A stretch of 3,259 nucleotides of DNA from a bacterium. GTDB taxonomy: Bacteria > Zhuqueibacterota > Zhuqueibacteria > Oceanimicrobiales > Oceanimicrobiaceae. Shown here piece by piece: positions 1 to 3,259 of the stretch. The position numbers and the translations under genes are program-made. The notes beneath the pieces are model-generated. The model was not told the origin of the DNA. It was given only the letters and a program-made list of their open reading frames with translations, and did no database searches. The first letter of the stretch is position 1, and every line of letters begins with the position of its first letter. The DNA lies in assembly GCA_046758365.1 (NCBI GenBank), contig JBHIAC010000239.1, positions 1 through 3,259 on the forward strand, written 5' to 3'.

Positions 1-119
1 CCGAGCATGATAGGGGTGTCGGTATTGATAGGCGGACCTTGGGCAAAACTATCTGCCCAAGAACCTGCATACAAAAGAATGACCAGCAAGATAAAGCTGA
101 TTTTTAGTGGTTTGATCAT
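1..119 (-). CDS. 5' part of a secreted/outer-membrane protein of unknown function (runs off the left edge of the window)
   Basis: Hand translation from ATG at 119..117 gives MIKPLKISFILLVILLYAGSWADSFAQGPPINTDTPIML(G), open to position 1. It has a Sec-type signal peptide (basic N-region, hydrophobic core ISFILLVILLY, S-F-A|Q cleavage site). It starts 16 nt after the TBDT stop with an AAAGG element upstream. Not in the supplied ORF track. Confidence 0.85.
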   Translation of the reverse strand, partial: MIKPLKISFILLVILLYAGSWADSFAQGPPINTDTPIML

Positions 120-130
120 ATTAATAATTG

Positions 131-135
131 CCTTT
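131..135 (-). promoter_or_regulatory. Possible ribosome-binding site for the CDS starting at 119
   Basis: Minus strand reads TGA-AAAGG-CAATTATTAAT-ATG. The purine-rich AAAGG lies 11 nt before the ATG, a somewhat long spacing. Confidence 0.4.
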
Positions 136-2655
136 TCACCTTTTGTCTTTTTTAAAAGGTTCAACAGAGATTAGTGAAGCTTTAAATCCAGCTCGTTCAA
201 CAACATTAATTAATTCATCCAGTGACACTTTATTCTCACGGACGATGACTTGCGCCATTTTATCTTTAAGGCTCACTGTTGTCGAAACCACACCTGGTAG
301 CGCGTTGAATCGTTCATTAATCGTTTTAACACAGTTTTGGCAGGCCATCCCTTCCACTGATATCCGGACTTGTTTGGTATTTTTAAGATTTAACTTTTTC
401 TTGAACTTAGGCATAGGTAACGTGAGTCTAGTCGTAATAAAGGCATTACGTCCGGGTTCAGGAAGGAGTGCAAGATTCAAATGATCTCGGTAATTTTTGT
501 TGAAGATATTTTTAACACCAACAGAGAATTCAATACCTTCTTTAACTTTCCATCCTCCTCTGAAGTCAAATACGGCATATGCCGGAGTGTGTTCTTCTCC
601 ATACCGTTTAGCATAACGATTTTGAGCGGCTGCTACTTTTACAGCAAACTCAAGCCAGTATCCCTTGTCGGCATTATTGTATCCAAGCTTTGTAGCTGAC
701 TCAAGTGGTGCAATACCGGGAAGTGGGTCACCGGTTGTTTTATCCTGCCCCCAATCGTAAGATACATTCGTGCTAAGAAATAATGATTGTGAAATAGAAA
801 ATTTAACGACAGCACTTCCACCGATAACATTCGCCTTATTAATGCCATCAAATCGTTTGACTCCTTTTGACCCCCGGTATGGATTTGCTATGTTGGAATC
901 TACTTCGGCAGAAATCAGATTCGATAGACTATTATGATAGATTTCAATATTCCAGTTAAAACGATTTTGCATTCCTTTAAGTCCAATACGTTTGCTGGTA
1001 TTGGTTTCTGAAGTTAAATCTGGATTACCAATTCGGTAATAACCATCTATCATAGGAGCAGCAATAAAACGTTCTACAGGCGTGGCTGCCTTAAATCCCT
1101 TACTTACAGAGGCAGTCAGTGCGGTGTTTTCTGCTAAATTGTAAAGCAGGCCCGCAGAACCACTAAGTATGAATTCTTCAGATTGCAGATTGTCCTGGAA
1201 AAAGGTAGATGTAGTATCTTTTTTGGCATTTGAACTTATATAATTTGCTCGAACGCCAGTTTGCACTTTTAAGCGATTGAAAATTTTATATTCATCTTGT
1301 ATAAAAATACCCAATTCACTGACTGACGACTTTGGAAGAATATCTATGAACAGTGAGCTTACACCATGGTTAATAACGCTGCTTTTCTCATACATTTTCC
1401 ATAAGCTATAGAAGACCCCCGTAGTGAGCGTATTTTTTTTACCGATTGCCCAATAGCTGTTTACATTAATATTATAGGTATTTGTTTTTGAATCGCCTTT
1501 AAATTGCAAATTACCGGGCAAATAGTTTATCATATTGTGATACATGGGTGAATATGAAATATTAGCAGTAATCATTTGCAGTTTTTGACCTAGATCACTA
1601 ACAGTATAATTTAAGGCATACGTATCTCTTTTTTCTTCAGGGATGATGGTATTGGCAGCCGGCCAGCCAATATCTTCAGCTCTATAAATTTGAGTTGTGA
1701 AAAGCAATTGTTGATTATAGCCTGGACGATATCTGCTTTTCAGTTGAATGTTACTGGATTTAAATCCGCTATTTTTGACAACTCCTTGTTTTGTTTTATA
1801 GTCATCGTGTAAGCCTGCTCCAACACTTGCAACAAAGTCAAATTTTTCATTTCCGCCACTAAAAGAGAGCATTCCAGTACGTGAATTAGACACGCTTTGG
1901 TATTTGCTGACAAAATTGATATCTGTTTTAAAGTTTTGACTTTTAGTATATTTGGAATTTATCGTTGAAATATTAATAATGCCGCCCATATTACCGGAGC
2001 CGAATTGTGCTGACCCTGGTCCTTTCTGTACCTCTATATTTTCAATCATATCAGGTTCTATCGTGGCGGTGCAGGCATCCATGCCCATCGGACAGGCTTG
2101 ATTTATTTTTACTCCGTCAATGAATACCAGTATTCTGGAATCTGTCATACCTTGAAAGTAGGGTTTTGTACCCCAACTTCCTGAGCGTGAAGTTGATACA
2201 CCGGGCACTTCTTTTAATATATCGGCTGTGGTAGTAGGTACAAGCCTTCTAATTTCTTCTGATTCTATCTTCATTACTGGCATGGGACCTCTTATTTTTT
2301 TAGCTTCTATAGTGATTTCATTTAGTTCAATTAATTTAGAAAGAAGACCAAAATTTAATTGAACGGTTTCCCCCTGTTTAACGGTAACACCTCTTATTTG
2401 ATTTTTAAAACCAATCATTCTGGCTTCTAATTTGTATTTTCCAGTCGGTACATCTTTAATTTCATAAAACCCTCTTTTGTCTGTTGCGGCTCCCTGAGTT
2501 GTGCCCAGAATCAAAACGTTTGCCCCCGCTAACGACTCACCCTTCTCCGCATTTCTTACGTACCCTTTGATGGTCGCATTTTGTTGAGCATAAACTCCAG
2601 ATGTAAGGAAAGGAAGAATTAAGTACACAATCTTCATTAATTGTTTAAGCTTCAA
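136..2655 (-). CDS. TonB-dependent outer-membrane transporter, OprC-like (putative copper), with N-terminal carboxypeptidase-regulatory-like domain and C-terminal HMA domain
   Basis: 839-aa ORF. Signal peptide 1-23 (VYA|Q). Residues ~27-104 look like a CarboxypepD_reg-like domain (IKGYV..GESLAGANV..GAATDKRGFYEI..PTGKYKL..IGF). TonB-box-like LNEITIEA at 111-118. Plug motifs ADILKEVPGV, VFIDGV and IENIEVQKGPGSAQFGSGNMGGIINI. Barrel hallmarks GIFIQDEY, GFKAAT, GNPDLTSE and GVKNIFNKNY...PGRN. Metal motifs C188-x3-M192 and H373-x-M375. HMA motif GMACQNC at 769-775. The TTG start is supported by a Shine-Dalgarno; an alternative ATG is at 2637. Confidence 0.95.
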   Translation of the reverse strand: MKLKQLMKIVYLILPFLTSGVYAQQNATIKGYVRNAEKGESLAGANVLILGTTQGAATDKRGFYEIKDVPTGKYKLEARMIGFKNQIRGVTVKQGETVQLNFGLLSKLIELNEITIEAKKIRGPMPVMKIESEEIRRLVPTTTADILKEVPGVSTSRSGSWGTKPYFQGMTDSRILVFIDGVKINQACPMGMDACTATIEPDMIENIEVQKGPGSAQFGSGNMGGIINISTINSKYTKSQNFKTDINFVSKYQSVSNSRTGMLSFSGGNEKFDFVASVGAGLHDDYKTKQGVVKNSGFKSSNIQLKSRYRPGYNQQLLFTTQIYRAEDIGWPAANTIIPEEKRDTYALNYTVSDLGQKLQMITANISYSPMYHNMINYLPGNLQFKGDSKTNTYNINVNSYWAIGKKNTLTTGVFYSLWKMYEKSSVINHGVSSLFIDILPKSSVSELGIFIQDEYKIFNRLKVQTGVRANYISSNAKKDTTSTFFQDNLQSEEFILSGSAGLLYNLAENTALTASVSKGFKAATPVERFIAAPMIDGYYRIGNPDLTSETNTSKRIGLKGMQNRFNWNIEIYHNSLSNLISAEVDSNIANPYRGSKGVKRFDGINKANVIGGSAVVKFSISQSLFLSTNVSYDWGQDKTTGDPLPGIAPLESATKLGYNNADKGYWLEFAVKVAAAQNRYAKRYGEEHTPAYAVFDFRGGWKVKEGIEFSVGVKNIFNKNYRDHLNLALLPEPGRNAFITTRLTLPMPKFKKKLNLKNTKQVRISVEGMACQNCVKTINERFNALPGVVSTTVSLKDKMAQVIVRENKVSLDELINVVERAGFKASLISVEPFKKDKR
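166..372 (-). other. C-terminal heavy-metal-associated (HMA, CopZ/MerP-like) domain of the TBDT
   Basis: Residues ~762-830, QVRISVEGMACQNCVKTINERFNALPGVVSTTVSLKDKMAQVIV...LINVVERAGFKA, contain the canonical GMxCxxC (nt 331..351), LPGV, VSL and AGF elements of the HMA fold. Confidence 0.93.
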
Positions 2656-2660
2656 TATAT

Positions 2661-2666
2661 ACCTCT
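2661..2666 (-). promoter_or_regulatory. Shine-Dalgarno sequence for the TBDT (TTG start at 2655)
   Basis: Minus strand reads TGA-AT-AGAGGT-ATATA-TTG. GAGGT lies 5 nt before the TTG, inside the 13-nt intergenic spacer. Confidence 0.7.
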
Positions 2667-2668
2667 AT

Positions 2669-3259
2669 TCAGTTTTGTTCTTCGACTGAGGCTTTATTAA
2701 CACCAACGAATTTTGCCTTAAAACCGAGCTTCTCTACGGTCTCGATCAATTTCCCCCTGTCTTTTTCATCCCCCGAACAGAGAACCGTGGCTTCATTTTT
2801 TTCAAGACTGACCGATACCTCTTTGGCACAATTGATTTTATTTAACGCAGCCTCCACTCGCGATACGCATCCCTGACATTGCATGCCTTCTATTTTCAAA
2901 GCCACGTTGTGGTATTTGGATTCTGACTTGGTTACAGGCTTCTCGAAAGTAATTTCCCGTGGCGTGAATCCAGCCTCTTTGACTTTCTTCTGAATTTCTG
3001 CCTCAGTGAGTTTGGCGCCTTCTTTCAGAAATAGATTAACCAGACCATCGTTGATTTTAATTTCAAGCTTTGCGACGCCGTTCAGTGATTTCAGCTTTTT
3101 CTCCAACCCGTAGGCACAAAATGGACAGGAGAGCCCATTTACCCGAACCGTGATTTTTTCTCCCTTGACTGCGTTCTTAGACTGTTCCCCAGCGTAGGTG
3201 GAATTTATTAAAAATGTGCACGCCAGAAGGAAAGCGGTTAAAATCAGCACAATATTATG
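2669..3259 (-). CDS. Exported protein with two tandem HMA domains (periplasmic metallochaperone-like); true start probably beyond the right edge of the window
   Basis: The ORF track starts at GTG 3250, but the frame stays open to the edge (CAT AAT ATT GTG = H-N-I-V) and the signal peptide lacks a basic N-region, so the gene is probably 5'-truncated. Hydrophobic leader LILTAFLLACTFLINSTYA|G. HMA1 is ITVRVNGLSCPFCAYGLEKKL...EAGFTP (motif nt 3116..3136). HMA2 is VALKIEGMQCQGCVSRVEAAL...VSLEK...LGFKA (motif nt 2867..2887). Confidence 0.93.
   Translation of the reverse strand, partial: HNIVLILTAFLLACTFLINSTYAGEQSKNAVKGEKITVRVNGLSCPFCAYGLEKKLKSLNGVAKLEIKINDGLVNLFLKEGAKLTEAEIQKKVKEAGFTPREITFEKPVTKSESKYHNVALKIEGMQCQGCVSRVEAALNKINCAKEVSVSLEKNEATVLCSGDEKDRGKLIETVEKLGFKAKFVGVNKASVEEQN

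Follow-up and report, generated by a model that had tools for sequence, protein, structure and literature searches.

A conserved fusion of an OprC-type TonB-dependent transporter with a C-terminal HMA domain, a candidate entry step for thiophilic metal ions

The stretch of DNA analyzed here (the window) is the entire contig C239, 3259 bases long, of the metagenome-assembled genome (MAG) G000, which comprises 3.7 Mb and is 95% complete with 8% contamination. According to the list of open reading frames (ORFs) and the sequence, its minus strand carries three closely packed genes: one for a secreted protein with two HMA domains, one for a TonB-dependent transporter (TBDT) that continues past its last barrel strand into an HMA domain, and the start of a third gene. 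The central gene occupies nucleotides (nt) 136..2655 of the minus strand and encodes a signal peptide, a CarboxypepD_reg domain, a plug, a barrel, a linker, and an HMA domain, as judged from the ORF, the sequence, Pfam, and a structural model. Its start is ambiguous, being either a TTG at nt 2655, which gives 839 residues, or an in-frame ATG at residue 7 (nt 2637), which gives the 833 residues of the version found in the protein collection (P0001); the signal peptide is intact with either start, and the numbering used here follows the 839-residue form. The stop codon is the TGA at nt 138-136. The TBDT-HMA fusion is genuine and conserved. Its transporter lineage and its added domain are both known, but their conserved combination is new, as is the operon setting, and the metal site is re-tuned.

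The domain order CarbopepD_reg_2, Plug, TonB_dep_Rec_b-barrel, and HMA, which a preliminary description of this DNA had read from the letters alone, is found by Pfam. The CarboxypepD_reg-like N-terminal domain (residues 29-116; nt 2308..2571, minus strand) matches CarbopepD_reg_2 (PF13715) with an E-value of 1.3e-20, and the plug (residues 122-226; nt 1978..2292, minus strand) matches PF07715 with 2.1e-22. The barrel, which reaches to the last strand and ends at L746 (nt 418..1743, minus strand), matches PF00593 along residues 305-717 (E 2.4e-37), Plug and barrel both scoring above their gathering scores. An AlphaFold2 model of the fused protein has a mean predicted local distance difference test (pLDDT) of 92.1 and a predicted template modeling score (pTM) of 0.81, and Foldseek matches it to TBDT structures at E about 1e-41. 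The Plug and the 22-strand barrel of a TBDT are thus present by Pfam, model, and Foldseek. A conserved E-I-T-I/V-E/x-A at residues 113-119, before the plug, may correspond to a TonB box; it lies in the sole low-confidence segment of the model past the signal peptide (residues 110-119, pLDDT <50).

Codon L746 (nt 420-418) is not followed by a stop, and the chain runs 93 residues beyond it. The protein was aligned with 140 others of 550-1000 residues, the whole set containing 13 fused and 128 non-fused proteins. Since 112 of the 128 non-fused relatives terminate at the column aligned to L746 (Phe being the last residue in 76/128), the barrel truly ends at this position and the remainder is an addition. 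In the model the last strand comprises residues 737-747 and the HMA domain is folded after it. The two are joined by a Lys-rich linker delimited by the alignments and the model (residues 747-759; nt 379..417, minus strand), whose first residue is the invariant P747; counted up to residue 761 the linker reads PMPKFKKKLNLKNTK, and the block 751-760 has a pLDDT of about 76. The C-terminal HMA domain (residues 760-833; nt 157..378, minus strand) is delimited by Pfam PF00403, by invariant columns, and by the model fold. Its Pfam match, residues 765-825, has an E-value of 2.5e-12 and, at 47.4 bits, exceeds the gathering score (24.8), and the GMACQNC loop corresponds to residues 769-775, with C772 at nt 342-340 and C775 at nt 333-331. 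The fold is β-α-β-β-α-β (strand 760-768, helix 773-785, strands 789-795 and 800-806, helix 812-821, strand 825-833), so that profile match, GMxCxxC loop, and fold are all those of an HMA domain. A barrel terminus without a stop, a 15-residue linker, and a complete GMACQNC domain, the three elements of the preliminary description, therefore stand.

In this protein the TBDT rule that the last strand is the C terminus, with an aromatic end (the β-signal), is broken, and the usual terminal aromatic signal is internal, the HMA domain having been added after the last strand. In a 22-strand TBDT barrel both ends point into the periplasm; from this established topology the C-terminal extension would be periplasmic, and the HMA domain would hang below the barrel, as had been proposed.

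The junction is found intact in other assemblies. Contigs of 3390, 3341, and 3348 bases from three separately assembled vent-metagenome runs of one study (X1, X2, and X3, X1 possibly being the source sample) each span nt 1-3259 in one piece with zero indels and show no base differences at nt 244-695, which contain the junction region. A fourth run (X4) has a coverage gap at about nt 332-462, which counts neither for nor against the junction. The contigs from the three separate assemblies (lengths 3341-3390) end about 45-90 bases from both window ends, which suggests flanking repeats or strain variation around the three-gene block.

The fusion also recurs. A word-based search with residues 640-839 retrieved six relatives at 52-68% identity with a Pfam HMA domain and a seventh at 49%, and P747, G769, M770, C772, and C775 do not vary when the seven are aligned with the window protein (alignment A1). 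HMMER, run exhaustively against 1.84 billion cluster representatives, gave six full-length fused clusters, from 62 down to 34% identity, and two further fragments whose match extends into the HMA domain; below 34% the matches drop sharply to non-fused TBDTs (≤30%) and reach no farther than query residues 729-745. In the 185,579 species genomes scanned, 15 loci were found, at which 13/13 complete ORFs end in an HMA domain with CxxC; the other two are L009, truncated by a contig end right after GMACEFC, and L016, an N-terminal fragment. Metagenomes added eight loci, with all six complete ones fused and carrying CxxC (L036 repeats L002 in gene order and ORF starts, L043 repeats L014, L042 has the layout of L014, and the others are short contigs).

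The family is rare, with about 15 loci in the 185,579 species genomes and carriers in 5 of the 167 genomes of the phylum of the window, and is spread over Bacteroidota, candidate division KSB1, Fidelibacterota, and Aminicenantes, among others. A cultured, non-pathogenic carrier is Flavilitoribacter nigricans DSM 23189 (Bacteroidota; locus L013), in which the fused gene directly follows merTP and merA. The Aminicenantes members (L014:7953-10682, L015:1170-3914, and L042:7983-10709) end in two tandem HMA domains (G[IV]DCQ[FY]C) and reach 908-914 residues. Database names of the relatives are generic, two being "TonB-dependent receptor" or similar and the others unnamed.

By sequence, the closest TBDT of solved structure is the copper importer OprC (PDB code: 6FOK; E 2.4e-25, about 20% identity). 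In the fold search PhuR comes first by E-value, with OprC chains at ranks 2-10; the latter have the highest target-normalized template modeling scores (0.83-0.87), with a root-mean-square deviation of 3.0-3.6 Å. In the accessible part of the OprC study, the "CxxxM-HxM" copper ligands are Cys143, Met147, His323, and Met325, the Cys being required for binding Cu(II) and dispensable for binding Ag(I) or Cu(I) (PMC8610252). C188 and M192 of the fused protein align with C143 and M147, and H373 and M375 with H323 and M325. The plug motif C188-P-M-G-M192-D-A-C195 (nt 2071..2094, minus strand), located by the 6FOK alignment and the OprC ligands given in the part of PMC8610252 available, is invariant in A1, and the barrel-wall motif M371-Y-H373-N-M375 (nt 1531..1545, minus strand) was placed by alignment to OprC. 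The NCBIfam TonB-copper model TIGR01778 matches with 161.7 bits (E 3e-47); because this is far under the equivalog cut-off of 472.45, the fused protein is related to OprC by lineage but is no ortholog of it.

All four OprC ligands are retained in 57 of the 128 non-fused proteins. Cys195, on the other hand, is present in 13/13 fused proteins and in 0/128 non-fused ones, where P, G, V, A, T, or other residues take its place. The full C-M-C-H-M pattern occurs in 12/13 fused proteins, the remaining one having Ala375, and CP[ML]GMDAC is found in every fused locus. When the HMA part is left out and a tree is built from plug and barrel (645 columns), the fused proteins, and no others, group in a single clade (13 leaves, support 1.0); in the sister group the OprC site is retained and residue 195 is Gly or Ala. 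The HMA fusion and the second Cys accordingly have a single origin, together or nearly so, in an OprC-type lineage. In the model, C188, M192, and C195 fall within eight residues, in a coil followed by a short helix (195-198), and C195 could on this account reach the metal site. The gain by this clade of a second Cys at an extracellular metal site goes beyond the preliminary description, as does the suggestion, taken up below, that the cargo may be Hg(II).

ORFs within 4 kb of the gene were called in L009 and in the 13 complete loci; of the 119 obtained, two spurious ones inside the TBDT of L009 were dropped, and the remaining 117 were scanned with Pfam, 30 of them also with NCBIfam. MerT or MerT-HMA (MerTP) is encoded within 4 kb in six of the 13 complete loci (L002, L005, L007, L010, L012, and L013), and the MerTP model NF033556 exceeds its 180-bit cut-off in L005 (267), L010 (282), and L013 (290 bits). 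MerA above the equivalog cut-off of 454.45 bits is encoded on the same strand in L005 (519.9), L013 (493.2), and L004 (546.6, about 6 kb upstream). The mer-cluster setting is consequently full in L004, L005, and L013, partial (MerT or MerTP) in L002, L007, L010, and L012, and absent at L006, L008, L009, and L011. A nearer 450-residue flavoprotein reductase of L004 was rejected as MerA, having 312.6 bits against 454.45 and glutathione reductase as its best match; the genuine MerA of this locus lies farther upstream.

Regulators are also frequent beside the fused gene. L002 and L005 encode MerR-family regulators whose best NCBIfam match is the Hg-MerR model (147 and 145 bits, cut-off 150.85), ahead of CueR (125 and 123). 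Each has three Cys (85/120/130 and 80/115/125), in the same arrangement as sensors for divalent thiophilic metals (MerR, PbrR, CadR), whereas in the Cu(I) sensor CueR the first of these positions is Ser. CsoR-family repressors occur in six of the 13 complete loci (L003, L004, L010, L013, L014, and L015), the CsoR gene being the sole such neighbor of the TBDT in L015. Those of Bacteroidota loci (L003:603-968, L004:7223-7588, L010:6658-7035, and L013:7355-7738) have 121-127 residues and lack the usual Cys/His positions of the family; they have instead a conserved ACPGNC at about residue 75, and their C terminus is much extended. By sequence they may represent a new sensor type in mer-like clusters.

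The first gene of the window (nt 2669..3250, minus strand) encodes a secreted protein of 193 residues with two HMA domains (CPFC and CQGC; Pfam HMA in two stretches, E 1e-21), which is a probable periplasmic metal carrier. It lies 13 nt upstream of the TBDT start, and an ortholog of 189 residues is found in the same position in L002, and thus at the matching place in L036. Its two loops differ in type, GLSCPFCAYG as compared with GMQCQGC; the former type is seen again in a 106-residue protein of L003 and, as the variant GLSCAGCAYG, in a fusion protein on contig C313 of G000. Secreted proteins with one or two HMA domains are encoded beside the TBDT in the window, L002, L003, L010, L013, and L041. 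The third gene of the window (nt 3..119, minus strand) starts with an ATG at nt 119-117, 18 nt past the TBDT stop, and only its 5′ part precedes the contig end; its product has a signal peptide followed by AQGPPINTDTPIML. It is the ortholog of the 304-residue Phenol_MetA_deg-type outer-membrane protein encoded after the TBDT in L002 (Pfam PF13557, E 6.5e-13), both having the AQGPPINTDTPIMLG stretch. Proteins of this kind, of 256-304 residues and followed by an NHL β-propeller, are encoded at L002:10861-11775, L003:3885-4655, and L007:5708-6502; Pfam names only that of L002, those of L003 and L007 being alike by sequence.

Other neighbors are more scattered. L002 encodes a weak TonB_C match, ExbB, and ExbD. 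Small MTH895/ArsE-type thioredoxin-like proteins of 84-90 residues are encoded directly before the TBDT in four loci (L003:1057-1311, L004:7671-7925, L007:6914-7186, and L010:7159-7428); each has an N-terminal CxxC, and all but one also have a Cys-Cys pair at the C terminus. L010 has in addition a 72-residue GDCCVxC-domain protein. The Aminicenantes loci L014, L042, and L043 encode ArsR, a P1B ATPase whose best match is the Zn/Cd/Hg/Pb type, and ArsA, and the order CsoR, TBDT, ArsR, P1B ATPase, 94-residue protein, ArsA is conserved between L014 and L042.

From the observed architecture, conservation, metal site, extra Cys, and neighborhoods, we infer the transport steps, the transfer steps, the topology, and the cargo. 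With about an even chance, in our judgment, the gene would encode an OprC-lineage importer whose cargo is a thiophilic ("soft") metal ion and which carries its own first acceptor in the periplasm. The ion would be bound outside by C188, M192, and C195 of the plug and H373 and M375 of the barrel, and a TonB-driven rearrangement of the plug, as is assumed for all TBDTs, would free it on the periplasmic side. There, the HMA domain, tethered to the last strand by a linker of 13-15 residues, would catch it on C772/C775 before other periplasmic thiols could do so. By ligand exchange the ion would then be handed to secreted HMA proteins, such as the one with two HMA domains encoded upstream, and from these it would reach an inner-membrane carrier of the MerT/MerTP type. 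MerT has three helices, so the HMA domain of MerTP faces the periplasm. The secreted HMA neighbors together with the MerT-type carriers indicate such a relay of a thiophilic metal. The best-supported reading is that the tethered domain accepts a soft metal as it leaves the plug, which supports what the preliminary description had proposed.

The cargo may be mercury, as Hg(II), rather than Cu(I), because mer genes adjoin the fused gene in several genomes. Hg(II) is the most likely cargo of the family on the sequence evidence, taking roughly half of the probability. The gain of a thiolate at the site in the fused clade, the same-strand mer genes in three genomes, the enrichment of MerA among carriers, and the three-Cys MerR-type regulators all speak for it. 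Of the 14 carrier genomes to which the loci led, 9 have a MerA above cut-off, as do 22 of the 167 genomes of the phylum of the window; within this phylum, 3/5 carriers and 19/162 non-carriers have it (Fisher p = 0.017, kin not being independent). Moreover, MerR activators and CsoR-family repressors are kinds of regulator that turn genes on in the presence of metal. With such metal-induced regulators beside an importer, uptake for detoxification fits better than scavenging and agrees with the mer strategy, in which cells with the uptake genes but without merA are hypersensitive. If the cargo is Hg(II), the protein, with its fused MerP-like domain, would let the ion through the outer membrane at the start of a mer-type detoxification route that acts as a "funnel to MerA". 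The fuller proposal, that the family is a dedicated TonB-energized outer-membrane step of Hg(II) uptake for detoxification, in which a second thiolate would have re-tuned an OprC-type barrel that also has its own MerP, is given somewhat less than an even chance.

The strongest alternative is the acquisition of copper (or silver), that is, an OprC/NosA-like import of ionic Cu for cuproenzymes. The HMA domain would then chaperone Cu(I) in the periplasm, and the neighboring MerT-like and HMA proteins would be copper-handling paralogs of the mer proteins. We consider this possible though not probable. It draws on OprC being the closest solved relative, with the four copper ligands, including His and both Met, conserved, and on the E-value of the TonB-copper match, even if the score of that match stays far under its cut-off. 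It also draws on the CsoR-family neighbors, whose best matches, weak ones, are to the copper sensor RicR, on a CopZ-N-terminal-type protein encoded in L002, and on the genome of the window itself, in which no second OprC-type TBDT was found with the fused protein as query. The only other TBDT of G000 at E ≤ 1e-15, on contig C129, has 24% identity and no CxxxM seen in its plug. The fused protein may therefore be the only OprC-like protein of the organism, and an argument for a new function from a separate canonical OprC paralog in G000 was dropped, no such paralog having been found. Neither G000, in spite of its 95% completeness, nor its closest relative G065, which holds L002, has a MerA above cut-off. 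In addition, contig C313 of G000 encodes a 344-residue protein (L023:387-1421, minus strand) that joins MerT (SLCCIGP), HMA, and a COX2/cupredoxin domain (CuA-type, CSIFCGSGHSQM), and this ties the MerT and HMA modules to a copper-type domain in this genome.

Most of these points also weigh against Hg(II), and others weigh on the proposal as a whole. The C188-C195 pair might be a disulfide instead of a two-thiolate site, no metal genes lie within 4 kb in four of the 14 loci (L006, L008, L009, and L011), and the enrichment of MerA, which is based on small numbers, could reflect metal-rich habitats and not function. Also, family scores of the fused HMA domain do not discriminate between Hg and Cu, and an assignment by this means was abandoned. 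MerTP_fusion gives 43.3 bits against a cut-off of 180, and CopZ-type models give a near-equal 44-54 bits, below their cut-offs; MerP (TIGR02052) is outside the best 25 of 40 matching families.

Nonetheless, copper acquisition has to accommodate a bona fide MerA in the same-strand clusters of L004, L005, and L013, with MerTP above cut-off in the last two, as well as MerR-type regulators in L002 and L005 that have Cys at the first ligand position and score higher as Hg-MerR than as CueR. Metal-activated regulators beside an importer are hard to square with scavenging, and the clade-specific extra Cys is left to explain. For the lineage of the window, with no MerA found in its genome, Hg(II) and Cu are close to even. 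Two further observations concern G000: a 28-bit MerA match on C313 (MerA positions 440-465) was dropped, being a short peptide without an adjacent Cys pair, and contig C144 (L025:1096-1803) carries a gene for an ArsR-family regulator followed by a 110-residue MerT-like gene that ends about 85 bases from the contig end.

A further alternative is that the HMA domain acts as a sensor or gate, docking under the barrel or on the TonB box when loaded with metal and so stopping uptake, or that it buffers metal. The linker is short (13-15 residues) and has a moderate pLDDT, and together with the pTM of 0.81 this suggests that the domain may occupy a defined place under the barrel; the Aminicenantes versions have two tandem HMA domains, and P1B ATPases have regulatory N termini with tandem HMA domains. 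However, the separate secreted HMA proteins and MerTP carriers adjoining the gene fit a relay better, and we regard a sensor or gate as improbable, with a similarly small share left for other metals or roles. Finally, an artifact, be it a misassembly, a stop codon lost by sequencing error, or a recent chance fusion of genes, might be suspected in a short contig of 3259 bases from a fragmented MAG with 8% contamination, but is rejected as having a negligible probability in view of three spanning assemblies without indels, fusion of all complete homologs, which come from several phyla and have identities as low as 34-36%, and the invariant linker Pro and GMxCxxC.

The passage of soft metals through the outer membrane and the periplasmic receivers of TBDTs are poorly known. 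OprC is the only structurally characterized importer of ionic copper, and models of mercury resistance are drawn without an outer-membrane transporter. In this context, a natural fusion marks the hand-off partner of a soft-metal TBDT, and the family shows that a TBDT barrel can assemble with its β-signal strand internal to the chain. The fused protein may be an unrecognized first step of mercury or copper uptake. If the tethered-acceptor reading is true, it would be the first known case of a TBDT whose cargo goes to a periplasmic chaperone linked to it covalently; if the cargo is Hg(II), an outer-membrane component would be added to the mer paradigm, which now assumes diffusion, and Hg(II) would never be free from the cell surface to MerT/MerA.

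As for precedents, the preliminary description knew of no characterized TBDT with this architecture, and neither a TBDT with a C-terminal HMA domain nor a mer-linked TBDT was described in the full-text literature searched, most subscription journals lying outside it. In the parts of these papers available, a 2026 article on a new TBDT copper family has no "HMA", "heavy-metal", "fused", or "mercury" (PMC12914433), and the Bizionia paper presents an OprC-like flavobacterial TBDT with CxxxM-HxM and no fusion (PMC11213822). Likewise, in the accessible part of a survey of mer diversity, the legend of Fig. 1 has diffusion through the outer layer, "TonB" appears 0 times, and the canonical mer model includes no outer-membrane transporter (PMC8261052).

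Among characterized systems, the fused protein is closest to OprC/NosA of Pseudomonas, TonB-dependent importers of ionic copper that copper represses, and shares with them the Plug, the 22-strand barrel, and the CxxxM and HxM ligands, aligned residue by residue. It differs from them in the extra invariant Cys three residues past the Met, in the added N-terminal CarboxypepD_reg domain and C-terminal linker and HMA domain, and in its neighbors, which are of mer or CsoR type and not denitrification genes. With FecA-type transducers, which carry a signaling domain at the N terminus, and the Bacteroidota-type CarboxypepD_reg TBDTs it has in common a TBDT core with a periplasmic accessory domain; to our knowledge, the accessory domains of known TBDTs are N-terminal. 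The CopZ/Atx1 chaperones and the HMA domains at the N termini of P1B ATPases have the same fold and the same CxxC metal loop, and by sequence the best PDB matches of the C-terminal tail are HMA domains of copper ATPases. Those domains, however, are cytoplasmic, free or attached to inner-membrane exporters, whereas the HMA domain of the fused protein would be periplasmic and is attached to a putative importer. The likeness to MerP and MerTP, which offer the closest functional analogy for the tail, lies in a GMxCxxC HMA fold that in the periplasm takes a thiophilic ion for a membrane carrier and, for MerTP, which is encoded beside the fused gene in several loci, in an HMA domain joined to a transporter. 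In MerTP, however, this domain is carried by the inner-membrane MerT, whereas in the fused protein it is carried by an outer-membrane, TonB-dependent barrel.

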